NCBI GenBank assembly: GCA_041389025.1
Contig: JAWKSP010000003.1
Location: 4,065 to 68,064, forward strand
From: Minisyncoccota bacterium
GTDB taxonomy: Bacteria > Patescibacteriota > Minisyncoccia > Phycocordibacterales > UBA918
Direction of reading: 5' to 3'
Length of the DNA stretch: 64,000 bases
This document shows positions 106-61,872 of this stretch, piece after piece. Below the pieces are notes generated by a model. The model did no database searches. It was not told the DNA's origin and was given only the letters and a program-made list of their open reading frames with translations. Position numbers and translations under genes: made by a program. Position 1 is the stretch's first letter; every line of letters starts with the position of its first letter.

Positions 106-2001
106 TTAGACAATACGATTTGGATCAACTTCGATTTTTATATAAGGGGGTAAACTTTTTAGTAATTCAACAAAATTAGTAATTTTCTCACGGTCGCCGG
201 AAAGCCTAAAAAGAGCATAGCGTAAAATCTTATTTTCAGAGGAAAGTGGATTGTTGTAGAAGTGACCATCGTATTTTTGGGTAACTTTTTTTATTAAGTC
301 TTCAGTCTCTTTAACAACGTTTTTATTGCCGGACCAGCTAAGTAAAAAGAAAGTAGAGAAAGAAGGATAGTTTAAACTTTCCCGTAAAGCTAATTCGTCG
401 TGATAAAAACTGTCCAATTGTCCTTGTTTGGCATATCGTAGTAAGTCGTCTGGTTTGGATCTGGTTTGTACTAAAACTTCTTTGTGAGAGATATCACGAA
501 GTTGAAGGAGTAATCTAAAAGTATCTTCATCAGCGCGCCAAGTTGGAATGGTGCGGGTAGCGTCCATAGATATTACGGCACTTAAATTAATACCTTTAAT
601 AGTCAGATAAGGTAAAGTCATTTGAGTACCAACCAAAATCACACCTTTATTGTCATAGAAATCACCGATTATTTTTTTGGCTTTTTGTCTAGTGCTAGCG
701 GTTTGCCCATCAAATAAAATCACTTTGTGGTTGGGAAAAATTTCTTTACATTCATCGTAGACGTGTTGAATTCCAATACCGCGTTGTTTTAATCGCCAAG
801 AACCACAGCTGTCACAAGTGTCAGCTGCTCGAACTCGTCGTCCAGAAGTACTACTAACAAACCAACGTTGTTCGTCACCTTCTTTGTTGTAGGTTCTGAG
901 TAGGGAGTAGGGAGTGTGAGAATCGGGGCAGCGGAAAATATAATTACAATCAACACAGTTTACGACAGGAGCAATTCCTCTTCTAGCTCCATACAAAAAT
1001 ACTCGACCTCTAGCTTCTAAGGTGCTGTTCATGCGTCTTTTTAGTTCTGGTGAAAACAATGCAAAGGGTGTGTTGGGAGTGGATTTATCTTTTTGTTCAA
1101 TAATTGTAAAGGGAGTAGGAAAGGCAATCCGTTTGGTTTCTTGGCTGTGAGTGGTATAAAACTCAAAACGACGTCGATGCTCATCTTCAGCTCGGGGCAA
1201 AATATCACCCATCAATAAGCTTCGACCAGTTACTTTGGCGTGTTTTATGATAGCGGTTCGGTGGTCTAAATAAGGTCGAGTGCGGTTTTTGTATAAGTGA
1301 CTAGCTGACTGTTCAACTATGATTGATAGTAGATCCACTCGGTCTAAGTAAGTGTGTGAGGGGGTGGTAATAATAACTTTAGCTAAGCTGGTATCTTCAA
1401 AAGCTTTATAAGCGGCTTTTCGTTCAGTTTTATTTTGATATGGAGAAAATTTTACAATTCGATCTTCAATACCATGTGATAAATGTTTTTCAGCATATTC
1501 AAGATCAATAGAGTTTGGTACAACAAACATAACTGAACCACGCTTAGCTAAAGTACTTCTGATATGGGTACGATAAGCGACATAGCGTTCTTCTATTCGG
1601 GCCGTAATAACTTGTGGGGTGGAATCTTCTTCGTGGGTAAGGGTGGAGACGGTGGGGTAATTGTATTGACCGTCTTTTACTTCCGGTGGGAGAATTTGAT
1701 AAAGAATGCCTCCTACTGAACTTGGATAAATTTTGGTTAATTCATTGGCGGTTTTACGTAAGCAGTCAGGAATAGTGGTGGTGTCAGCTTGGGTGGGAAG
1801 TTTGCGTAAAGCAAAACCAGCTCCTTTTAAGCTAGTTTTTGAGTCACTGGCAGATTTGGAGTTGGTGACAATTGCTCGATGTTCTTTGCCTCTAATTGGT
1901 ACTTTGATAAAGGTACCGATTGGGTAATCGGTACTACTAAAATAGGACAAAGTATCTAATTTAGTACCTTTGATAAGCGGAATTACCTCAATCACAAACA
2001 T
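106..2001 (-). CDS. priA: Primosomal protein N' (replication restart helicase PriA)
   Basis: 631 aa with a DEAD/DEAH helicase core and the PriA-typical Cys4 zinc-binding insertion (CVDCNYIFRCP...CDSCGS). Confidence 0.85.
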   Translation of the reverse strand: MFVIEVIPLIKGTKLDTLSYFSSTDYPIGTFIKVPIRGKEHRAIVTNSKSASDSKTSLKGAGFALRKLPTQADTTTIPDCLRKTANELTKIYPSSVGGILYQILPPEVKDGQYNYPTVSTLTHEEDSTPQVITARIEERYVAYRTHIRSTLAKRGSVMFVVPNSIDLEYAEKHLSHGIEDRIVKFSPYQNKTERKAAYKAFEDTSLAKVIITTPSHTYLDRVDLLSIIVEQSASHLYKNRTRPYLDHRTAIIKHAKVTGRSLLMGDILPRAEDEHRRRFEFYTTHSQETKRIAFPTPFTIIEQKDKSTPNTPFALFSPELKRRMNSTLEARGRVFLYGARRGIAPVVNCVDCNYIFRCPDSHTPYSLLRTYNKEGDEQRWFVSSTSGRRVRAADTCDSCGSWRLKQRGIGIQHVYDECKEIFPNHKVILFDGQTASTRQKAKKIIGDFYDNKGVILVGTQMTLPYLTIKGINLSAVISMDATRTIPTWRADEDTFRLLLQLRDISHKEVLVQTRSKPDDLLRYAKQGQLDSFYHDELALRESLNYPSFSTFFLLSWSGNKNVVKETEDLIKKVTQKYDGHFYNNPLSSENKILRYALFRLSGDREKITNFVELLKSLPPYIKIEVDPNRIV

Positions 2002-2108
2002 AAAGGGTATTGTACCAAAATCGCAACAAACCGTCAGGTTTGAGATTTTTTAAAATAAGAAATCTCACTTGGGAAAGTGAGATTCTAGTGACTTCATACC
2101 TTATTTAG

Positions 2109-5187: not shown

Positions 5188-7929
5188 ATGTCTGAAGGAA
5201 TACCAAAACAATTCACTACTCCGGAGGAGGAGATAGCTTATTTGCGTGAACAAATAGCCAAACGCGAACAAGAGCTTTTAGCCAGAACACCTGAAGTCGA
5301 CCAATCTGATGTAGAAGCAGTTGGAAAACAAGAGATTAGAGAGTACGCTAGTTTTACTCCCAAAATGGTTCTAGAGAAAAATCATCAGCTGAAAGATACT
5401 GCTATTGCTATATCCGCTGAACAAGTCAGTGTCGCGTCTGATCCTGTAGAAGAAATCATGCAAGTTGCGACAGAGAAAGGAATTAAAAATGCTCTAACCG
5501 TTTTAGAAAAAATAGATAATGCTTATTTGGTCGATGAGGTACACCGTCGATTGGTTGAATATATTAAATCAGGAGTAGAGATGCAGGACTTAAAGGAGGG
5601 TACGCCAGCTTGGCATGTTCTTCACATGACTTTGTATGAAGTGACTTTGCCGGAGACAAAGTCAGTTAATGGACGTGAATATCAGTTAGCTGAGCTTATT
5701 GGTATGATGGAGCAGTTGTTTGCTGGCTTGCGAACAATTGGTTCAGAGCAATCACACAATCATTTTGCGATTGAAATTGCGGTGGCTGATAATAGCGACG
5801 ACATTGTTTTTTACGTGGCAATACCAAATAAGTTTGTAACTTTGTTTGAAAAGCAGGTTCTTTCCTTATTTCCGCATGCACAATTAATTCTCCAAGCTCA
5901 CGATTACAATATTTTTGTCGATAATGGTACTACTATTGTGTCTGAGGTTTCTCTTAAAAAACATCCGATTTATCCGGTGAAAACCCACGACAGTTTCGCT
6001 TCTGATCCCTTATCGGTGATTTTAAATGCTTTTTCAAAAATTGAACGAGAAGGTGGTGGAGCAGCGGTGCAAATATTGGTACGCTACCCGCAAAAAGAAT
6101 ACCGTAAAAGCTATGAAGGGGTCATAAAAAATATGCAAAAAGGTATGAAAGCCGGCGATGCCATTTCTCGTAGCTCACTTGGCGGTGAAATAATGGCCTC
6201 ACTGTCTGACTTTGTGTTTAGTAAATCAAACAAAGACGAAAACAAGGAAGTTGACTCAGATAAAATCCAGCTGTTCGGACAAAAAATAAAATCAGATATA
6301 GTGGAGACAAACATCCGTTTGGCGGTATCAGCTAGAGAAATTTCACGAGCAGAAGATATTTTAACCGAAATCGAATCCACTTTTCATCAATTTTCTTTGG
6401 TGGACGGCAACAGTTTTACCTTCAAGCGAGTAAGAGGAGGTTCGTTACGTCAGGCGGAACGACAATTTTCTTTTCGTGAATTTTCCAAGCATATTATCTT
6501 GCCGTTGTCTCTGACAGAGTTGTCTACCGTTATTCATTTACCTGCCAATGGCATCGCTTCTTCACCGCAGTTCAAGCAATCTCATGTAAATACCGCTCCG
6601 GCACCGACCGATATGCCGACCGAAGGTACTCTTCTTGGTATCAACACCCATCGCAATGTAGAGCGAAAAATCTTTATTACCGATGAAGATCGGGTACGAC
6701 ACTTCTATATTATCGGACAGACCGGTACCGGTAAGACATCATTGATGAAAAATATGATTGTGCAGGATATCGAGAGAGGCGATGGGGTGTGTATGATCGA
6801 CCCACACGGCACTGATATCGAGGATGTTTTAAGCGCGGTGCCGAAGGAACGTGAGCAGGATGTGATTTATTTTGATCCGTCACGACTAGATAAGATTGTC
6901 GCCTTAAACATGCTTGAGTATGACACGTCCAAGCCGGAACAAAAAACTTTTGTGGTCAATGAACTTTTTTCCATTTTCCAAAAGCTTTATGGTGGTAATC
7001 CTGAGTCAATGGGCCCAATGTTTGAGCAATATTTTAGAAATGCCACTTTACTAGTAATGGAGGATCCAGATAGTGGTAATACACTGATGGATATATCTCG
7101 GGTGATGGCTGATGCCAAGTACCGCAAAATGAAGTTGTCCAAGGCTACCAATCCGGTGGTGGTGCAATTTTGGAGTGAAATAGCTACCAAAGCCGGTGGT
7201 GAGGCTTCTCTGGAAAATATTGTGCCATATATTGTGTCTAAGTTTGATGTCTTTACCGCCAATGACTACATGCGACCGATTATCGGTCAGCAAAAATCCG
7301 CTTTCAATTTTAGACAAATAATGGACGAACGGAAGATTCTTTTGGTTAATTTATCCAAGGGTCGTTTAGGTGAAATAAATGCCAACCTTATTGGTATGAT
7401 TATTGTCGGAAAGATACTAATGGCGGCTTTGTCCCGGGTAGATGACCAAACTCGTGGCTTCCCACCTTTTTATTTGCATATGGATGAGTTTCAAAACGTA
7501 TCTACCAATTCTATTTCGGCGATTTTGTCTGAGGCTCGAAAATACAAACTCGGCCTTACAATCGCCCATCAATTTATCGCTCAGTTGGAACCGAGTATTA
7601 AAGACGCGGTGTTTGGAAACGTCGGTTCAATGGCTACTTTTCGAGTGGGAGCAGAGGATGCGCAGTTTTTAGAGTCACAATTTTCTCCGGTGTTTGGCGT
7701 AAATGACCTTATTAATATACCTAATTACAATGCGATAGTCAGGATATTAGCAAATGGTACGCCGACCAAGCCTTTTAATTTACGCACCATGCCTCCGGCA
7801 AAACTAGATCCAACCAGAGCAAATGCTCTCATTGACCTCAGTTATAGCCGATATGGACGATCAAGAGAGGAGGTGGAGGCGGAGATATCCGCTAGATATG
7901 CCAAAGAACCACCGGTTGGCTTAACTTGA
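5188..7929 (+). CDS. Large P-loop ATPase with a type IV secretion VirB4/VirD4 (TraC/TraG)-like C-terminal domain
   Basis: Walker A YIIGQTGTGKTSLMKNMI and Walker B-like HMDEFQNV. The C-terminal pattern RKYKLGLTIAHQFIAQL...VFGNVGSMATFRVG matches the T4SS ATPase family. There is no N-terminal TM segment and the N-terminal ~450 aa are unassigned. Confidence 0.55.
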   Translation: MSEGIPKQFTTPEEEIAYLREQIAKREQELLARTPEVDQSDVEAVGKQEIREYASFTPKMVLEKNHQLKDTAIAISAEQVSVASDPVEEIMQVATEKGIKNALTVLEKIDNAYLVDEVHRRLVEYIKSGVEMQDLKEGTPAWHVLHMTLYEVTLPETKSVNGREYQLAELIGMMEQLFAGLRTIGSEQSHNHFAIEIAVADNSDDIVFYVAIPNKFVTLFEKQVLSLFPHAQLILQAHDYNIFVDNGTTIVSEVSLKKHPIYPVKTHDSFASDPLSVILNAFSKIEREGGGAAVQILVRYPQKEYRKSYEGVIKNMQKGMKAGDAISRSSLGGEIMASLSDFVFSKSNKDENKEVDSDKIQLFGQKIKSDIVETNIRLAVSAREISRAEDILTEIESTFHQFSLVDGNSFTFKRVRGGSLRQAERQFSFREFSKHIILPLSLTELSTVIHLPANGIASSPQFKQSHVNTAPAPTDMPTEGTLLGINTHRNVERKIFITDEDRVRHFYIIGQTGTGKTSLMKNMIVQDIERGDGVCMIDPHGTDIEDVLSAVPKEREQDVIYFDPSRLDKIVALNMLEYDTSKPEQKTFVVNELFSIFQKLYGGNPESMGPMFEQYFRNATLLVMEDPDSGNTLMDISRVMADAKYRKMKLSKATNPVVVQFWSEIATKAGGEASLENIVPYIVSKFDVFTANDYMRPIIGQQKSAFNFRQIMDERKILLVNLSKGRLGEINANLIGMIIVGKILMAALSRVDDQTRGFPPFYLHMDEFQNVSTNSISAILSEARKYKLGLTIAHQFIAQLEPSIKDAVFGNVGSMATFRVGAEDAQFLESQFSPVFGVNDLINIPNYNAIVRILANGTPTKPFNLRTMPPAKLDPTRANALIDLSYSRYGRSREEVEAEISARYAKEPPVGLT

Positions 7930-7957
7930 TATGGTAGAATGATAAAAATTTTAACTT

Positions 7958-10900
7958 ATGAGTATGGAGAAATTTGGAGATAATAAAGGAAATAGATCGG
8001 ATGAAATTGTGAATGCTGAAATTATTTCAGAAGGTAGTGGACCAATTGGTTCTGGTGAGAGAAATGTTGTAAATGAAAATAACAGTCAAGAGAATCCAGA
8101 TAAGACTCAAGAAGCCAGCTCAGAAAAAGAGTCAAGTCTAGAAATCGAAGCGGAGCAACTTGATGATTCGGAGCAAGAGTTTGCTGATGCAGAAGGCAGG
8201 TTTAAAGCAATAAAAGACACTGCTGAGAAACTAAAAAGTGCAGTACCAGAAATATATAGTCATTTAAATTCAGCCGATTCAGCTATCAGTGCTTTTAATA
8301 ATATCAGAGAATCTGATGAAAGAATTAGAAAAAATTATATTTCAAGGTATCTTGGTGTTTTAAACCGAGCTATAAAGTCAATCAATGAATTAATTGATGA
8401 GAATAAAGATAAACTAGAGACGCAAGGTGATCAAGATCAGAAAGAGGAAGAAAAGGTTGGGCGGAATAATGATAGAAAATCAGAAAATAGTAAAGAGAAA
8501 AGTTCTCATCAGAAAGGACTGGTGGAGGCTTATGTTAATAAGTTCAATAAAATTTTTACAAAAAAATTTGGTAATTTAGACACCTTGGATAACACTGACC
8601 GTGGAAATCCAAATGGTCTGCCTGAGTATTTGATTAATGCAATAAAGGCTTTTAAAGCAAAAGAGGCTGAGGTTAAAAAATGGATAGCAAACACTGATTC
8701 TACAACCCAAAATTCAATAGTTGGTGTACAAACTTTACAAAATTTTGTAGCCGAATTAAGGGATTTAAAACATGCTACTCATGAAGCGCATACAAGATAC
8801 ACTAGAGAGAAGCTGGGTCTAGATAATTCAAAAGAGAGTGAAGATCTTGAAGTAAAAAAATCAGAAATTATCTCAGGGTTTAGTTCAGTTGAGTCTAAGT
8901 TTGAAAAAATAGCAGGTAATGCTAAAAGTACAGTTTCAAATGAAGATTTTCAGAAACTTAAGCCCGATGCAAGACGTGTTATTGAAGCGGGTAGAAATGC
9001 TATAAAAGAATTTAATGAATTAGCCAAAACCGAACCGACTGAAGAAAACTTAAATCAGCTAGAAGGAAAAAAGAGAGAGTTAGAATCTGTGATTGCCAGT
9101 TTGGCAAAAAAAGTTGGTGAGATGGAAGGAGTAGAAAAAGATACCGATAAAAAAACAGAAGAAGCTAATGAAGCTGAAAATGAAAAAGGGGATAACGGAA
9201 AAGAAAATAATGAAGATGTAAAATCAAAAAGTGATGATACTCGCACTGAAAATAATGGTGTAGTGGTTGATGTAGAAGAAAAACCAAAAGAAGAAATAAG
9301 TGTTGAGAGTGAAGACGTGGTGGCTGATGAAGAGGTTGTTGAAGGTCTGGAGTTAGATGAGGGTGAAAAAAAAGAAGTTGGAACAAACGAAGAAAAAGAT
9401 AATAAAGAAATTTTTCAAGCTGAAAGAAAGGAATGGTATGAAGCTAGGAAAAAATATTATGAAGATAAAAATGCCTACAATGAAGCGGTAGAGAGTTTTT
9501 ATAAAAATAGAAACTGGTTTGGAAAGGTGGCAGATAGCGCTAAAAGTTTTTTTGGCTTAAAACCAAAATTGCCAGAAGGAATTACTAAACTAGAAAATGA
9601 ATTTAAAAAATCTAGAAGCTCGTACGCTCGTGGTTTGGATTCTGTTTTGAAGAAACGGGCTATAGAAAAAAATACAAATTACGCGGGATTTGACGAAAAG
9701 GACAGTGAAGGTAATTCTACTAAAGCTTCAGACAAGATAAAACAGTTGTTTACGCGTAAGTTTGTTTTGCGTCCAAGTAAAGAAATATTGGATTTACAAA
9801 AAACTGAGATTCTAATTGAAGGACAAGTTGAGGCTGTAGGCAGGGTAATGACTAAGTTGAAAGAAAGTAAATGGTATGTACGAGGTGGAATTATAACTGG
9901 TGCGGCAATATTAGGTACAGCTAGTGGAGGTTTGTTGGCTGGAGGTTTGGCGGCGGCAACGGCTGGTTCTCGTATGGCTATTGGAGTTGGATCTGGTGTA
10001 GCTGCTGGTTGGTTGGCTGATAAAGGAATGAGTTTTAGGGTGAATAAAGCCGAAGCAACAGCTAAGGAGCTTATGGAAGGAAGTAATTTTTCAGTAGCTG
10101 ATATTGATAATTATGAAGAGGAGGTAATGCAAGCCTTACGAAAAGCCAAAGCTGCTCAGAGCCAAAGAACCGCTGCTATAGCAACCGCTGGTTTGGCTGG
10201 TGGTTTGGTTGGTGCCTACAACGCTCCTGATTCTATTGCTGGAGTTACGGATGTGACTGAAAAGGTTTCAGGTGGTTCGGGTGGTGTGGTCGGCGATGTT
10301 GTTTCTGGTGAAGAAATTACAAAAAGTATAAAAGAAGTACTGCACAAAATTGATTTAGGGGAAGATATACCTAATGACACCGCTGGTACCGAAACCGGCA
10401 TGGAGGTGGTTGATGATGCTAAAAAAGTAGTCGAAGAAAGCGTAGAACCGTTGACTAAAGAACCTGTAGAAATAATTAATAAATTAAATGTACCAATTTA
10501 TAACTTAAATGAGGTTGGGCAGTTCTATAACCACTTACATAATATTTCTATTACCGGCGCTGAAGGTTTGGAAGTGGATCAGTTGAGTCAAGTGAAGCAG
10601 TTTATACAACTTAAAGCCAACGACATCTTGTCTGGTGAACCGCACATGACGCCGCAAAAACTCGGTGCAGAATTACAGTCGTTACTGGAGAAGAAGTTTG
10701 GTGAAGAAAGTTGGTGGCAAGAGTCACCGATTGATAAGGTGGATATTGGTAATATAACCAAAGTTGGTTATGATTCTTATGTAGACGTTGACTCTTTAAA
10801 TAAAGATACCGCTCCTATAACCATAGAAACTGAAGTGGGAGAAACTGAAAATATTAGTAGCAATATTTACGAAGTGCAAGCCGGTGATAAGCTTTGGACC

Positions 10901-55448: not shown

Positions 55449-57631
<2,183 letters not shown>

Positions 57632-57635
<4 letters not shown>

Positions 57636-57865
57636 AATGCTCTATCTCCAAATTAAAGACTACAACAATCATTGACGATGTTTTTAATGTTACAGTTCCA
57701 ACTTCAACTGGAGAAATAAACATCAGATCAAACCATGCTGAATATTACGGGGTTACAGTAACAGGTAACGTATTGGTGATAAAAAATGATCAAACCAAAC
57801 AAACTTTCGGTATAGATTCAGGGATTTGCATGGTAAAAGATAACGAAATTTTGATTATTCAATAA
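57632..57865 (+). CDS. atpC: F1 ATP synthase epsilon subunit, beta-sandwich domain only
   Basis: 77 aa in the operon-terminal position with an epsilon-N-domain-like pattern. The C-terminal helical hairpin is absent. Confidence 0.55.
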
Positions 57866-57895
57866 GATATGTGTTCATTATTTATGCTACCTAGA

Positions 57896-57966
57896 TTGAC
57901 AGACTAATCTAAGAAGTGTATTTAAACTACATTTGCTATTGACATTTTAGTAAAAAAGTGTATAAC
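57896..57966 (+). promoter_or_regulatory. Two tandem sigma70-like promoters (TTGACA-17-TATTTA and TTGACA-16-TATAAC)
   Basis: Both have a TTGACA -35 and share an aagtgtat spacer/-10 context upstream of the 58023 ORF. Confidence 0.45.
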
Positions 57967-58022
57967 ATTTAAGAATTTGTAATTTGATTTTCAGATAAAA
58001 CTTTTAAAAAAGGAGGCTGAAA

Positions 58023-58496
58023 ATGCCAATGTTCATGTTTGAAATCGTGCAATCTGTCAAAGGTTCTCCTAATCCATCAGTTTATGATGAAGGATTGTCG
58101 TATACACCAGAACTTAGCGGAGCAGCTATGGTTGTTTACTGGGAATTTTTAAACGAAGAGGTTGCCAAAAAACACATAATAATAACAGATCATATAACCG
58201 AAAAAATTCCAGCTAGTGATAATCCTATTTGGTCTAAATACAGACAACTTGGTTCTGGTCTTGATATTTTTTATATCAAGCAACTGACTCCAGAAGAGGA
58301 GCTTGAGGTCAAAATGGCCATGGCTCGGGTGTTGTATAAAATGTATTTTGAGCTACTAGATCAGGAAACATTTGAAAGATTAACCGGACTAACGGTTAGT
58401 GTGGAAACATTGACGGAGCCAACAGCGCGAGAAAAAGGCCTTTTTTATAAAGAAATAAATGAAATAGTAGCTGAGGAATTTTACTGTGCTGTATAG
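58023..58496 (+). CDS. Hypothetical protein
   Basis: 157 aa with a strong SD (aaaggaggctgaaaATG), followed by a terminator. No motif was recognised. Confidence 0.5.
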   Translation: MPMFMFEIVQSVKGSPNPSVYDEGLSYTPELSGAAMVVYWEFLNEEVAKKHIIITDHITEKIPASDNPIWSKYRQLGSGLDIFYIKQLTPEEELEVKMAMARVLYKMYFELLDQETFERLTGLTVSVETLTEPTAREKGLFYKEINEIVAEEFYCAV

Positions 58497-58516
58497 GTAG
58501 TGAAATTCCTTAGTTA

Positions 58517-58559
58517 AACCGATATTGCGTTACTTAGTCACACAATATCGGTTTTTTTT
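58517..58559 (+). terminator. Rho-independent terminator
   Basis: aaccgatattg / caatatcggtt stem followed by T8. Confidence 0.75.
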
Positions 58560-58564
58560 GTTTC

Positions 58565-58632
58565 AATCCTCGCAAAATTGCCTTATTTAGTATAGTATAA
58601 TTTGGTTTTAGACACTTACGTAGTATTTTATA
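58565..58632 (+). repeat. Left copy of a 68-bp imperfect direct repeat carrying promoter-like boxes (TTGCCT...TATAAT)
   Basis: aatcctcgcaaaattgccttatttagtatagtataatttggttttagaca...gtattttata. About 85% identical to 61804-61872. Both copies start right after a terminator T-run. Confidence 0.8.
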
Positions 58633-58659
58633 CAAAAGTTTTATTGATACACCATAATG

Positions 58660-58688
58660 TTGACTTATAAGCAAATATATATTATATT
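58660..58688 (+). promoter_or_regulatory. Sigma70-like promoter (TTGACT, 17-nt spacer, TATATT)
   Basis: Consensus boxes about 85 nt upstream of the 58771 ORF. Confidence 0.45.
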
Positions 58689-58703
58689 CGCGTGAGTAGG
58701 TTA

Positions 58704-58740
58704 AAGCCTTTTTCGAAAGGTTTTGTTATTTTTTGTTTTT
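58704..58740 (+). other. Leader hairpin plus U-rich tract (terminator/attenuator-like) in the 5' UTR of the 58771 gene
   Basis: AAGCCUUU-UUCG-AAAGGUUU (8 bp, one G-U) followed by uguuauuuuuuguuuuuu. It lies between the promoter and the SD. Confidence 0.4.
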
Positions 58741-58770
58741 TGAATTGTAATTACTTATTAGGAGATTGAG

Positions 58771-59391
58771 ATGAGTTCAAAATCATCGCAACAAAAAAAT
58801 GTTAAAGTCAAAATTCTGATTCGTGGAATTTACCCAATACTTATGAATCCAGCTACGGAAGAGCTATTAAACCAACTTCCCGGAGCAGGTATATCGGCGG
58901 GGGCAAAGAAACCGAATAAAGACAGGACTCGTGAAGAGATTGCGGAAAGTCGAGTGATTCGAGATAAGAAGACAAAGAAAGTCGGTATTCCTGTCGAGTA
59001 CATGTATTCTTGTCTTAAGGAGGCGGGTCGTCATGTAATCTTTGAGGGTAAGAAGAAGATTTCTACCGCTGATTCTACTTTATTGTTTTCGTTTATGTCT
59101 ATTGACGAGCAATTTTTTCCGTTTATTGATCAAGATAGCGGTTATGAAATAGATGTTAGACGCGGAGTTAATCGTACCACCAAAGGCGCACAAGCAATCG
59201 TGCGTCCAAGGTTCGATACTTGGGCTTTTTACCTTACTATTGAGGTCGACACCAATGAAATCAATCTGGAAAAAGTCCGTATGGTGTTTGATCAGGCTGG
59301 TAAGAAAATTGGCTTGGCGGATTTTCGCCCTACCTGTAATGGGCCTTTTGGTCGGTTTGTGGTGGAAGAATGGAAAGAGATAAGTGCATAA
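58771..59391 (+). CDS. Hypothetical 206-aa basic protein; weak resemblance to a RAMP/Cas6-like Gly-rich C-terminal loop
   Basis: SD aggag. N-terminal beta-strand-like VKVKILIRGIYPILMNP. C-terminal IGLADFRPTCNGPFGRFVV Gly-rich segment. The Cas6/RAMP resemblance is an unverified guess. No confident homology. Confidence 0.5.
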   Translation: MSSKSSQQKNVKVKILIRGIYPILMNPATEELLNQLPGAGISAGAKKPNKDRTREEIAESRVIRDKKTKKVGIPVEYMYSCLKEAGRHVIFEGKKKISTADSTLLFSFMSIDEQFFPFIDQDSGYEIDVRRGVNRTTKGAQAIVRPRFDTWAFYLTIEVDTNEINLEKVRMVFDQAGKKIGLADFRPTCNGPFGRFVVEEWKEISA

Positions 59392-59468
59392 GGTGCTGTA
59401 CTGTACGGTACTGACCTGTGCGGTACGGTAAAGTAATCTGAAGTACTCTAGTCAACTCTTTTCTAAGG

Positions 59469-59559
59469 AGCTCGGTCCCTGTGAAGTCCAACTTCACAAA
59501 CCGAGCTATGTTCCGAGGATGTGTATCCTCGCTGATGATTCCGAAAGGATGAAAACAGA
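59469..59559 (+). ncRNA. Structured module A: 16-bp bipartite hairpin, AUGUUC linker, 6-bp hairpin (loop UGUGUA), CUGAUGA, 3-bp GAAA-tetraloop hairpin, GAAA
   Basis: AGCUCGGU...UGUGAAGU-CCA-ACUUCACA...ACCGAGCU. Then CGAGGA-UGUGUA-UCCUCG CUGAUGA U-UCC-GAAA-GGA-U GAAA ACAGA. Confidence 0.55.
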
Positions 59560-59636
59560 ATCATATAATGTATAGGCTCTCTCGTGAGGCGTACTGTCTG
59601 GTACTGCTTTGTACCGAATTGTCCCGTGAAGTGCGG

Positions 59637-59724
59637 ATCCGTGTCCCTGTGCTTCTGCATAAACACGGATAGCTCTCAAGGTGTGTACCTTGACTGATGA
59701 TCCTAAAAAGGTGAAAGTAAAAGA
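59637..59724 (+). ncRNA. Structured module B: diverged copy with compensatory changes in both small helices
   Basis: AUCCGUGU...ACACGGAU hairpin, AGCUC linker, UCAAGG-UGUGUA-CCUUGA CUGAUGA U-CCU-AAAA-AGG-U GAAA GUAAAAGA. Both small helices covary relative to module A. Confidence 0.55.
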
Positions 59725-59805
59725 AATTCACACAGTCTCGTATTTTAAGCTTTTGACCTGTTTAGATGCGTGTACAGCCGTGAAGACTAGTATTCTCTTC
59801 TTTGG

Positions 59806-59908
59806 AGTCTGGTCCCTTTAAGTTATATTCATAAAATATAACTTAAAAACCAGACTATGTTCCGAGGATGTGTATCCTCGCTGATGATTCCGAAAGGATG
59901 AAAACAGA
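59806..59908 (+). ncRNA. Structured module C: the 3' 52 nt are identical to module A, while the upstream hairpin has a different, fully compensated sequence
   Basis: AGUCUGGU/ACCAGACU outer stem (A has AGCUCGGU/ACCGAGCU). The inner stem is 12 bp, UUAAGUUAUAUU/AAUAUAACUUAA, unrelated to A's. The AUGUUC...GAAAACAGA core is then identical. Confidence 0.55.
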
Positions 59909-59950
59909 GGTATTTTGAAAATCAAATATTCTCAAAACAGGAGAGAAATT

Positions 59951-61738
59951 ATGAAACATCTTGCTCAATTTTTTCCGTTTGAGCGTTATCCGTCAATGAC
60001 AGATAATCAAGAAGCAGCCTTTAATTTTCTGGATAGTAATCAAAATGGTGGTATTATCGAAGCTCCTACCGGTACTGGTAAGACATCAATCGGTTATACT
60101 TGGCTGTCTTCATTCAAAGGAACTCGTTTCTATTTGGTGCCAAATAAAACTTTGGTACAGCAAGTAGTAGCGATGTTTCCCGATACTAAACCAATGTACG
60201 GACGTAACGAACATTCGTGTCTGTATTACAAGGATCGTGATTTAAGAGCTGATGAGGTGCCTTGTTCGTTATTGCGTAATTGTCCTCATAGGGTACTTGA
60301 AAGTGGTGAAACATATAGTCCTGGTTCAACTCCTTGCCCGTATTTGAAACAAAAGTACGAGGCTGGTTTGGGTGGGGGTATTATAGTTGCTACTTACGCT
60401 TTTTATTTTTACTCTGTTTTTCTGTTAAGACAGTTTACACCGACAGCTGTAGTAGTAGATGAGGCGCATTCGATTGCTAGAAGTATACGAGCAACTCTAG
60501 AATTTCGTATTACTGACCGTAAGCTTGTTTCTATTATTAAAACGCTAAAATCAGTAAAAGCAAAACAGGCTGGATTGATGGAAAAGTTTTTAAGTGAAAT
60601 GAAACTTGTTGTAAAAAAGCGTTCGCCTGGCAAGAGAACCTCAGATTCTATATTGTCGTACGATGAAATTGAACGTCTACTTAAGTGTCTTAACAGCATG
60701 GATATCAAAGAAATACGCAATGACATTAATAATGCTGTTCGTAAGTCTATTATCAGTCCGGTAGATGATTTTGAGATGTTAAAACAGTTAGACGTTATAA
60801 CTCGTGAACTTTATCGATATGTTAAGTCTTTAGGGTTTTCCCTGCCGCCTAAGCAAGAAAAAAGTAAAAAAAGACTTAATCCACTCGCTTTTACTTATGC
60901 CTTTTGGACAAGGAAAAAAGAGGGTGACGGTAGTGTTTGCTGTGAACTTATTGTGAAGGATCATTTTGTAGCTGGTCTTATAAAAGCTATGCTTCCAGCG
61001 AACTGTCTGGCGTGTTCTGCAACTATTGTTGATCCTAAAATGCTTTCATTTGAAACTGGAATTGAGGGTAAGTTTTTATCCTTGGGTTCAGGTTTTGATA
61101 ATGAAAAAACAGCGGTATTAATGCCAACAGATACACCAAATCTGGCGGTTAAAGAGCGGAATAAAAAAGATGTTACTAAGGCAATACGTCTTATGGTTAG
61201 GTCTGCTAAAGATTTAGCTCATGAAAACAAGCGTTCAGTTATTTTAGTTGTGTCTGAACTGGAGAGGCAAAAGGTATTGAAGTTTGCCACAGAAGAAGGT
61301 TTGACAGTAGTGTCTAACAATGAGAAGGAGAGTGCCAGACAAGCAATTTCACGCTTTGTTCAAGGAGAGGGGATGTGTTTGGTAGGTACTGTTGCTAATT
61401 ATGGTCAGGGTATAGATTTACCTGATGGTATGGCACCGGTCATTTTCTATTTTCGTCCAGCCTACCCTAATCCCAATGATCCGCAAACTGTATTTGAAGA
61501 AAATAGATACGGTAACGCGAGATGGGGTATATGGAATTGGCGAGTTATGATCGATCTCTTACAAGTACGAGGAAGAAACGTTCGTTCTGTAAGTGATAAA
61601 GGTGTAACAATACTGGTATCACAACAGTTTAGGCGGTTTGCCCGCACAGCTCTTCCAGAATGGCTTAGACCAGCCTATGTTAACGATAAAAATTTTGCTG
61701 AATGTTTATCTGAGGCAAAAAGAATAATTGATAGTTAG
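59951..61738 (+). CDS. XPD/DinG (Rad3)-family Fe-S cluster DNA helicase
   Basis: Walker A IIEAPTGTGKTS, DEAH-type VVVDEAHS, a four-Cys cluster between them (CLYY...C...C...C) and the helicase C-terminal_2 motifs (VGTVANYGQGIDLPD...GR..R). Confidence 0.75.
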   Translation: MKHLAQFFPFERYPSMTDNQEAAFNFLDSNQNGGIIEAPTGTGKTSIGYTWLSSFKGTRFYLVPNKTLVQQVVAMFPDTKPMYGRNEHSCLYYKDRDLRADEVPCSLLRNCPHRVLESGETYSPGSTPCPYLKQKYEAGLGGGIIVATYAFYFYSVFLLRQFTPTAVVVDEAHSIARSIRATLEFRITDRKLVSIIKTLKSVKAKQAGLMEKFLSEMKLVVKKRSPGKRTSDSILSYDEIERLLKCLNSMDIKEIRNDINNAVRKSIISPVDDFEMLKQLDVITRELYRYVKSLGFSLPPKQEKSKKRLNPLAFTYAFWTRKKEGDGSVCCELIVKDHFVAGLIKAMLPANCLACSATIVDPKMLSFETGIEGKFLSLGSGFDNEKTAVLMPTDTPNLAVKERNKKDVTKAIRLMVRSAKDLAHENKRSVILVVSELERQKVLKFATEEGLTVVSNNEKESARQAISRFVQGEGMCLVGTVANYGQGIDLPDGMAPVIFYFRPAYPNPNDPQTVFEENRYGNARWGIWNWRVMIDLLQVRGRNVRSVSDKGVTILVSQQFRRFARTALPEWLRPAYVNDKNFAECLSEAKRIIDS

Positions 61739-61767
61739 TTGTAAAATTTAAGATAACTTTATCTTGA

Positions 61768-61802
61768 ATGGCAAGGAGTTTTTAACTCCTTGCCATTTTT
61801 TA
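61768..61802 (+). terminator. Rho-independent terminator after the helicase gene
   Basis: atggcaaggagtt-ttt-aactccttgccat followed by T6. Confidence 0.8.
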
Positions 61803-61803
61803 T

Positions 61804-61872
61804 AATCCTCGCAAAATTACTTTATTTAGTATAGTATAATTTGGTTTTAAACAACCTAAGTGGTATTTTATA
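61804..61872 (+). repeat. Right copy of the 68-bp direct repeat, abutting the alaS start codon
   Basis: aatcctcgcaaaattactttatttagtatagtataatttggttttaaaca...gtattttata. The alaS ATG is 10 nt downstream. Confidence 0.8.

Follow-up and report, generated by a model that had tools for sequence, protein, structure and literature searches.

Systems of the Viral Interference Programmable Repeat (VIPR) kind, first described in 2026, are CRISPR-like systems of RNA-guided DNA recognition, and Vipr is their defining protein (10.64898/2026.04.26.720920). As defined in the text of that preprint, a VIPR guide RNA (vrRNA) consists of 9-16 pentanucleotide repeats, in which a conserved GGY core alternates with a variable NN dinucleotide, and of a conserved structured tail; a related consensus such as YNNNG is allowed. 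In this study we analysed a gene at positions 59951-61738 of a 64-kb stretch of contig JAWKSP010000003.1, from a Candidatus Paceibacterota metagenome-assembled genome (MAG). The whole stretch is hereafter called the window, and positions refer to it unless another locus is named. The gene encodes an iron-sulfur (Fe-S) helicase of the XPD/DinG type, and it lies beside a vipr-like gene and an array of putative vrRNAs.

The text of the same preprint distinguishes seven VIPR types and places 25.5% of the loci on cellular chromosomes. It shows hammerhead-interspersed arrays for types I and V, reports confirmation by small-RNA sequencing for hammerhead arrays of VIPR loci other than the present one, and assigns nuclease or helicase accessory (vap) genes to types III-V. 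As far as the texts of this and a companion preprint go (10.64898/2026.04.26.720920, 10.64898/2026.04.26.720927), Vipr binds as one protomer per repeat and forms a helical filament, base pairing to the DNA is by the NN dinucleotides with a skip of one base, an R-loop triplex arises, and transcription is repressed. It is proposed there that VIPR is older than CRISPR and that the RNA code by which it reads DNA is gapped. The role of the accessory helicases and nucleases is stated there as unknown.

The helicase in the window is very probably an accessory (Vap-type) gene of a chromosomal VIPR system in an ultra-small bacterium of the Paceibacterota, which belong to the Candidate Phyla Radiation (CPR), and would act by the mechanism set out below. 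The module, 3.2 kb in length, consists of vipr, three guide RNAs and, last, the helicase. The locus was assigned to VIPR because a Vipr-family RAMP, pentanucleotide guide RNAs with tails and a minimal locus are the features that define these systems; found in the window were a Vipr homologue with the G-rich loop, tracts of 14-15 units, structured 3' tails, and a minimal locus with an adjacent vap gene. The small single-domain RAMP is homologous to Vipr of SUSP1, the repeats combine a G-pyrimidine core with variable dinucleotides, and the locus has two genes and no CRISPR array. Both hammerhead-interspersed arrays and helicase accessory genes are mentioned in the text of 10.64898/2026.04.26.720920. 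The characterised type II systems (SUSP1 and a P. fulva prophage), as that text describes them, are phage-borne and carry a DNA-binding vap1 and GGY-NN repeats, whereas the window system is chromosomal in a CPR bacterium, has a relaxed, YNNNG-like NGY-NN repeat and a nested-hairpin tail, and is paired with an Fe-S XPD/DinG-type helicase of putative role. Another comparable system is TIGR-Tas, found in phages and parasitic bacteria, which likewise has tandem guide-RNA arrays that are not CRISPR; however, it employs Nop-domain Tas proteins and dual-spacer tigRNAs, and neither is present at the window locus. The locus is thus a member of the already described VIPR kind and not a new kind. Nothing is said in the texts of the VIPR preprints about the near-obligate association between Vipr and an XPD/DinG-type Fe-S helicase in Patescibacteria, nor about the discrete helicase clade, the relaxed NGY-NN repeat and the U.U hammerhead variant described here.

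The helicase and the Vipr protein

The helicase open reading frame (ORF) runs on the forward strand from an ATG at 59951 to the stop codon at 61738 and encodes 595 amino acids, with an XPD/DinG fold, a four-Cys Fe-S domain, an arch insertion and Helicase_C_2. If translation began at the TTG at 59915 instead, the product would have 607 amino acids. The ATG was preferred because AGGAGA lies 8 nt upstream of it and the homologues start at the equivalent position. In the translation, the Walker A motif reads APTGTGKT, the DEAH box VVVDEAH and the Cys region CLYYKDRDLRADEVPCSLLRNCPHRV...CPYL. Alignment of 26 family members showed that C90, C111 and C129 are invariant and that C105 is conserved in at least 90%. 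Pfam recognised Helicase_C_2 (4e-15), ResIII, DEAD and, weakly, DEAD_2. The AlphaFold model (predicted local distance difference test, pLDDT, 88.9; predicted template-modelling score, pTM, 0.87) was superposed with TM scores of 0.74 on E. coli DinG, 0.69-0.75 on archaeal and TFIIH XPD and 0.55-0.63 on CasDinG; for the XPD/DinG structures 6fwr, 4a15, 9p55 and 6ro4 the scores were 0.66-0.75. All features of the XPD/Rad3/DinG superfamily are present, namely Walker A, DEAH, four Cys between motifs I and II, the arch and HD2. From the motifs, the conserved Cys residues, the Pfam matches and the superposition of the model, therefore, the product is a genuine XPD/DinG-fold Fe-S helicase. No nuclease domain was detected in it by Pfam and NCBIfam scans. 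At NCBI the protein is entered as MEZ4104566.1, 'helicase C-terminal domain-containing protein', of a Candidatus Paceibacterota MAG.

The helicase shares its fold and motifs with XPD/Rad3 and DinG/YoaA (Walker A, DEAH, four Cys, arch insertion and Helicase_C_2), but it falls far under every equivalog cut-off, and it is genomically tied to Vipr and not to repair genes. The NCBIfam scores were 42.3 bits against a cut-off of 680 for YoaA, 37.3 against 598 and 34.1 against 789 for DinG, and 38.2 against 247 for rad3. By these scores the helicase is not a housekeeping DinG, YoaA or Rad3. A sequence search against solved structures listed archaeal and eukaryal XPD first (E about 6e-18) and E. coli DinG at 5e-10; CasDinG was not listed. 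Among 1.84 billion cluster representatives, about 50 full-length members of the helicase family scored at least 460 bits and one outlier 245, and the other full-length helicases scored about 130 bits or less; only 82 representatives, fragments counted, were found at E<=1e-30. On this distribution the helicases of the family form a discrete clade. Many relatives have an identity of 40-56%, and the named ones are CPR/Patescibacteria; the next-best matches beyond the family have overall identities of 23-28%. Those nearest outsiders include haloarchaeal Rad3-like genes (loci L053-L089, 23-26% identity), and two Acidimicrobiales MAGs score similarly. Neither a Vipr gene nor periodic tracts were seen beside the haloarchaeal Rad3-like helicases. 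No homologue of the helicase was found in sequenced phages (50,697 records).

The top PADLOC match of the helicase was 'typeIV_DinG, CAS-IV-A associated' (PDLC01439), at 6e-41 over the full length. On this same profile, however, three haloarchaeal Rad3-like helicases reached 240-268 bits against 139-150 bits for the helicase family, and the match is non-specific because of these higher scores. The name of this profile can mislead annotation. The profile of true Csf4, Csf4_0_IVA, matched the helicase at 1.7e-5. CasDinG (Csf4) is similar in that the gene of a DinG-family superfamily 2 (SF2) helicase lies beside a Cas7-type, filament-forming RNA-guided complex without a nuclease of its own, and it provides the best functional analogy, in which a helicase is brought to an R-loop and interference is thereby extended. 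It is different in that its structures (TM 0.55-0.63) are no closer to the window helicase than those of DinG or XPD, and in that the window helicase retains all four Fe-S Cys; the Fe-S domain of CasDinG is only vestigial. The window locus also lacks Csf1, Csf3, Cas6 and a CRISPR array. As judged from profiles and gene content, the helicase is not a Csf4 orthologue.

Upstream of the helicase, vipr (58771..59391, forward strand) encodes a 206-amino-acid, single-domain RAMP of the Cas7-like kind with a C-terminal G-rich loop, GLADFRPTCNGPFGRF. Neither Pfam, NCBIfam nor PADLOC gave a match for this ORF. A family profile built from 37 homologues, however, matched PDB entry 36pp_D, 'SUSP1 Vipr protein', at E 2.5e-14 over profile positions 7-196, and the single sequence matched it at 3e-4. 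The AlphaFold2 model, calculated with the 37 homologues, had a pLDDT of 88 and a pTM of 0.82. Foldseek returned only Cas7-family RAMPs for it, and the top 50 were mostly chains of type III Csm complexes (Csm3) and type VII Cas7, at E about 5e-7. Across the alignment the RAMP loop GLGDFRPxxRGPFGRF at the C-terminus is invariant or nearly so. The protein also matched the phage family phrog_4652 (2.7e-18), and it had weak matches among the hypothetical proteins of phages of Vibrio, Burkholderia, Gordonia and Pseudomonas. Going by these homologies the 206-amino-acid protein is a Cas7-like, Vipr-family RAMP. Its NCBI entry, from the same Candidatus Paceibacterota MAG, is MEZ4104565.1, 'hypothetical protein'. 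In the 5' leader of vipr (58703-58742) a hairpin of 9 bp, AAAGCCTTT-TTCG-AAAGGTTTT, precedes a T-rich run; this element resembles a terminator or attenuator and lies between a promoter-like site and the vipr start codon.

The combination of the two genes is conserved. A scan of one genome per species gave 42 loci with a close homologue of the helicase. Most are labelled Patescibacteria (Saccharibacteria, Paceibacteria, Kaiser-, Moran-, Komeili-, Doudna-, Andersen-, Kerfeld-, Wolfe-, Uhr- and Portnoybacteria); the other labels, three 'Gammaproteobacteria' and one 'Woesearchaeota', probably belong to mis-binned MAGs. Of the 39 loci with enough flanking sequence, 38 have a Vipr gene no more than 5 kb from the helicase. 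It usually lies upstream on the same strand and is separated from the helicase by 300-3900 nt of DNA that is for the most part free of ORFs. Conversely, all three distinct loci retrieved through the Vipr protein carry the helicase. The genes flanking the module vary between loci, among them NUDIX/secD, recJ/RNase H and polA/tsaE. No third conserved gene was found in the gaps of the module, which hold only small sporadic clusters. The single full-flank locus in which no Vipr was detected within 5 kb, L042, has periodic tracts on the gene strand; its Vipr may be divergent or more distant.

These results bear on a preliminary description of the window, which had reported an XPD/DinG-type helicase with Walker A, DEAH and four Cys at 59951-61738. 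Both the position, from ATG to stop on the forward strand, and the nature of the product are confirmed, by the translation, the alignment, Pfam and the AlphaFold superposition. The gene was there called stand-alone, which it is not: it is the second gene of a conserved module of two genes and an RNA array, with Vipr within 5 kb in 38 of 39 loci. The Cas7-like Vipr partner had gone unremarked in that description. The suggestion of an accessory context and not a repair operon was right, since the helicase is tied to Vipr in varying neighbourhoods. Two checks had been named there. The survey of genomic context returned the pairing with Vipr in 38 of 39 loci amid unrelated neighbourhoods, and orthology to housekeeping DinG or YoaA, which would have told against the description, did not appear, the scores being 34-42 bits against cut-offs of 247-789. 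The comparison with Csf4 is apt as a functional analogy; as orthology it fails on the Csf4 profile (1.7e-5) and on a locus without csf1, csf3, cas6 or a CRISPR array.

Guide RNAs and predicted hammerhead ribozymes

Between vipr and the helicase lies a gene-free stretch of 523 nt (59392-59914) with three repeated units, which fold well beyond their shuffles (z -3.9 to -5.7). The structured RNAs that the preliminary description had placed beside the helicase are thus present, but its account was incomplete: the units are guide RNAs of 5-nt repeats with tails and hammerhead ribozymes. All RNA features described below lie on the forward strand.

The repeat tract of vrRNA1 (59392..59466) begins directly 3' of the vipr stop codon and contains 15 units of 5 nt (GGTgc TGTac TGTac GGTac TGAcc TGTgc GGTac GGTaa AGTaa ...). 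Its periodicity is evident from an identity of 0.53 at lag 5 against about 0.2 at other lags. The 3' tail (59467..59513; z -4.9) is a nested hairpin composed of AGCTCGG, a TCCC bulge, the inner hairpin TGTGAAGT-cca-ACTTCACA, and CCGAGCT; it also carries the 5' strand of hammerhead stem III. The tract of vrRNA2 (59575..59644) has 14 units (GGCtc TCTcg TGAgg CGTac TGTct GGTac TGCtt TGTac CGAat TGTcc CGTga AGTgc GGAtc CGTgt), and its tail hairpin (59635..59675; ATCCGTGT ... ACACGGAT; z -3.9) overlaps the final two repeats. In vrRNA3 the tract (59734..59803) has about 14 units (AGTct CGTat TTTaa GCTtt TGAcc TGTtt AGAtg CGTgt ACAgc CGTga AGAct AGTat TCTct TCTtt); its periodicity is weaker than in vrRNA1 and vrRNA2, and the NGY-NN register is kept. 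Its tail (59804..59862; z -5.7) is again a nested hairpin. All three vrRNAs and also loci L090 and L008 have the nested-hairpin tail, and the outer stem co-varies between units.

When both strands of the 64-kb window were searched for at least 8 of 12 in-phase xGYNN units, only the tracts of vrRNA1 and vrRNA2 were found. In 48 related loci, periodic NGY-NN tracts numbered 218 on the gene strand against 5 on the opposite strand, and the haloarchaeal controls gave 2 against 2. These tracts are placed between vipr and the helicase, and just 3' of the helicase. In many relatives (L011, 5889-6528; L018, L023 and L047) the vrRNA array continues past the helicase, with up to 10 or more tracts, and in L010 a stretch of 3.8 kb downstream of the helicase (6860-10647) has no called gene and at least three periodic tracts. 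The window has no array downstream of its helicase.

Rfam at its gathering threshold found no family anywhere in the window, and ARAGORN found no tRNA there. A permissive Rfam scan of 57800-60000 gave only chance-level matches to C/D sRNAs, miRNAs and one CRISPR-DR. Neither Rfam nor Tandem Repeats Finder detected a CRISPR or other regular repeat array in the window.

Each tail is followed by a predicted hammerhead ribozyme with the layout UH^, a 7-bp stem I with a 4-nt loop, CUGAUGA, stem II, GAAA and stem III. Hammerhead 1 (59509..59557; type III) reads TGTTC^ CGAGGAT-GTGT-ATCCTCG CTGATGA TTCC-GAAA-GGAT GAA AACA. Hammerhead 3 (59858..59906) is identical to it in sequence, and hammerhead 2 (59672..59718; type III) differs from both in all three stems by compensatory changes. 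The type III core (C3-A9, G12-A14, A15.1-U16.1, H17) and three helices are present in all three copies, and cleavage is predicted after 59513, 59675 and 59862. The stems are short and the loops minimal. The guides in the window therefore appear to excise themselves by hammerhead ribozymes, as far as can be predicted from sequence and pairing.

A scan for this element gave 36 copies, which without exception lie on the gene strand and are confined to loci of the helicase-Vipr family; the 37 control loci had none. When 33 copies were aligned without gaps, the core was invariant, and 92.5% of the cells pair, against 63% for shuffles and about 40% for a slid partner; the pairing is partly due to selection, since the scanner required a minimum of 4, 3 and 3 pairs for the three stems. 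Even so, stem I is paired in 100% of the cells although only 4 of 7 pairs were demanded, and 14 of the 17 pairs show compensatory change. Rfam Hammerhead_3 scored 42.7-45.7 bits (E about 1e-8) in locus L008, under the gathering score of 48.5. The pair 10.1/11.1 is a standard G-C or G-U in 21 of 30 distinct copies of the alignment and non-standard, mostly U.U, in the other 9. The canonical G-C variant and the U.U variant coexist in L008, L011, L044 and L090, and in L008 they partly alternate along the array. The U.U sites of the window are 59540/59551, 59701/59712 and 59889/59900, so that all three copies have the U.U form. With its adjacent G.A/A.G pairs, this form also resembles a kink-turn (k-turn) of the box C/D type.

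The window copies resemble type III hammerheads (Rfam RF00008) in the complete core, with CUGAUGA, GAAA and the U-H cleavage site, and in the three co-varying stems; they differ in lying below Rfam detection, in their minimal loops and in U.U at 10.1/11.1. The array as a whole resembles engineered ribozyme-guide-ribozyme designs for CRISPR, in which tandem ribozymes stand between guides and self-cleavage would free guides of unit length, but the arrangement in the window is natural.

Proposed mechanism and alternative explanations

The module would be expressed as a single transcript from a promoter near 58660 to a terminator at 61798; a single operon is inferred because the only convincing terminator lies 3' of the helicase. 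Hammerhead cleavage after 59513, 59675 and 59862 would then release the vipr mRNA together with vrRNA1, followed by vrRNA2, by vrRNA3 and by the helicase mRNA, and hammerhead 3 would part the array from the helicase mRNA. With one Vipr protomer on each repeat, a helical filament presenting the NN dinucleotides would form; by homology with the work on SUSP1 and P. fulva, it would read double-stranded DNA with one base skipped between dinucleotides and open an R-loop. The Fe-S helicase may be recruited to the single-stranded DNA exposed at the bound site and, moving 5'-3', may unwind or clear the target past the footprint of the filament, by which silencing of the invading element would be strengthened. 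This step would parallel that of CasDinG in type IV-A CRISPR.

It is worth noting that several observations weigh against this interpretation. The vrRNA consensus in the window is NGY-NN, relaxed from GGY-NN, and vrRNA3 is degenerate; NGY-NN does fit the related consensus (YNNNG) that the VIPR definition, as worded in the preprint text, permits. The hammerheads carry U.U in place of G-C at 10.1/11.1, and they are absent from the Rfam list even at E 10. The assignment to VIPR stands at the level of the system, without a type number among the seven types. An action of the helicase on DNA that the Vipr-RNA filament has opened is suggested by analogy only. Finally, targets were sought by matching the vrRNA dinucleotides (NN) to DNA with skips of 0, 1 or 2 nt. 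No target above chance was found in the window at any of these skips, where only the array itself matched, at skip 3; eight scans of IMG/VR and one metagenome scan likewise gave only chance-level matches. In IMG/VR, exact patterns of ten repeats had 0 matches, and patterns of eight repeats had 32 and 11, in which the upstream repeats agreed at chance level (7 of 12 at best).

The metagenome scan gave a single exact match of 11 repeats of vrRNA1 at 1-nt skip, with 13 of 15 dinucleotides matching overall, at 1996-2027 (reverse strand) of contig Ga0105048_10163296 (L092). It is antisense to a Val/Ala/Gly-rich transmembrane segment, VSFFVAGVVVA, of a 259-amino-acid membrane protein, and the bases that are skipped coincide with wobble positions of the codons. 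The match is probably due to chance, because it is antisense to a low-complexity membrane segment on a GC-rich contig that is not obviously viral.

There is another possible interpretation within the same VIPR module, namely that the helicase acts before binding and either pre-unwinds the duplex for the gapped guide or strips and recycles Vipr filaments. A helicase without a nuclease domain would suit such a role, but in the closest analogy, type IV-A CRISPR, DinG acts after R-loop formation. Pre-unwound DNA gave complete filaments only, whereas a normal duplex gave a range of intermediates, and the gapped guide is argued to pair too weakly for unaided invasion of DNA (10.64898/2026.04.26.720927). 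On the other hand, according to the text of 10.64898/2026.04.26.720920, the VIPR systems of SUSP1 and P. fulva bind and repress without any helicase. We regard an upstream action as rather unlikely. The locus could also be read as a degenerate type IV CRISPR-Cas locus, in which Cas7/Csf2 and CasDinG/Csf4 remain and the array and other cas genes have been lost; the full-length best PADLOC match to 'typeIV_DinG, CAS-IV-A associated' (6e-41) and the Cas7 fold of the partner protein agree with it. This reading was largely refuted by the haloarchaeal control, which showed that the profile is not Csf4-specific (240-268 against 139-150 bits). No CRISPR array, csf1, csf3 or cas6 was found in the window, the Csf4 profile reaches just 1.7e-5, and CasDinG structures are no closer than DinG or XPD. 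Moreover, the small protein matches Vipr by sequence, and the arrays are 5-nt-repeat RNAs and not repeat-spacer arrays, so that a type IV origin is very improbable.

It seems equally improbable that the gene is a housekeeping repair helicase of the DinG/XPD type in CPR bacteria and a chance neighbour of an RNA element. The family is indeed widespread in Patescibacteria at 40-56% identity, and its neighbours in the window, the ATP synthase operon and alaS, are housekeeping genes. However, it co-occurs with Vipr in 38 of 39 loci with differing neighbourhoods, direct repeats that bracket the module in the window and in L002 point to insertion, the scores are far under the NCBIfam cut-offs for YoaA, DinG and rad3, and 82 representatives at E<=1e-30 among 1.84 billion are far too few for a universal CPR gene. 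A last alternative is a box C/D-like guide system based on kink-turns, such as TIGR-Tas, in which CUGAUGA...GA would be a k-turn and not the core of a hammerhead. The G.A/A.G/U.U pairs beside stem II in the window copies look like such a k-turn, and the weak best Rfam matches there are archaeal C/D sRNAs (E 0.39-1.5). This alternative is scarcely credible: Nop or Tas-like domains are absent from both proteins, the smaller of which matches Vipr, a standard 10.1/11.1 pair is combined with the full hammerhead core in 21 of 30 distinct copies, the three stems co-vary, and Rfam Hammerhead_3 reaches E 1e-8 in L008. It was dropped on account of the Vipr match and of the canonical hammerheads with co-varying stems in the relatives.

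Apparent insertion of the module and its possible biological meaning

The module is bracketed by a direct repeat of about 78 nt, whose left copy (58555..58632) is 87-90% identical to the right copy (61796..61872); the latter ends 9 nt 5' of the alaS start codon (61882). Because this flanking repeat duplicates the promoter/5'-untranslated-region block of alaS, the 3.2-kb stretch looks like an inserted cassette, to judge by these repeats. The cassette appears to insert ahead of genes and to copy their promoter. The clearest parallel is L002 (identical to L016), where direct repeats at 5713-5764 and 9735-9786 duplicate the promoter/5' region of the downstream NUDIX gene; shorter repeats of 43-46 nt were found in L035 and L037. 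Flanking direct repeats were not accepted as a general rule. Those of L040 and L051 occur in multiple copies and could belong to the array. Within the window module a promoter-like site, TTGACT-17-TATATT, lies 5' of vipr (58660..58688, forward strand; a consensus match alone), and an intrinsic-terminator-like hairpin with a T run (61766..61798, forward strand) closes the module. No convincing terminator was found between vipr and the helicase.

The ATP synthase operon lies upstream of the module and alaS downstream. Between atpC and the module there is an orphan ORF of 157 amino acids (58023-58496), with a promoter-like site of its own and a strong terminator (58516-58554). It had no Pfam, NCBIfam, PADLOC or PHROG match, and it was rejected as a third component of the module, as no related locus has a homologue. 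Two frameshifts that compensate each other, at a distance of about 125 nt, interrupt the ATP synthase beta gene, atpD (56274-57635): frame 0 extends to ...KGIY, a shifted frame follows, and frame 0 then resumes. These look like indel errors of the assembly rather than a true pseudogene.

Patescibacteria have tiny genomes and few CRISPR systems. We tentatively propose, as a possibility that is less than probable, that helicase-linked VIPR is the counterpart of type IV-A CRISPR, with a Vipr-vrRNA filament that marks the DNA site and passes it to an Fe-S XPD/DinG-type motor by which long stretches of the target are unwound or cleared, and that Patescibacteria have in it a principal RNA-guided defence, which spreads as a cassette of 3 kb ahead of housekeeping genes and duplicates their promoters. 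If this is true, the partnership of a RAMP filament with DinG arose before, or independently of, CRISPR, and through the helicase one could study directly by what means the R-loop triplex of VIPR is sensed by accessory enzymes.

The characterised VIPR systems in the preprint texts are all phage systems with DNA-binding accessory proteins. The window locus and its 40-odd relatives provide a compact example of another composition, with two genes, three guides predicted to process themselves and no detected nuclease. They also give a handle for annotating two genes that are now entered at NCBI as 'hypothetical protein' and 'helicase C-terminal domain-containing protein'. The coupling of an XPD/DinG-type Fe-S helicase to Vipr is nearly without exception across Patescibacteria, which makes it testable what a helicase adds to RNA-guided DNA binding by a RAMP filament.

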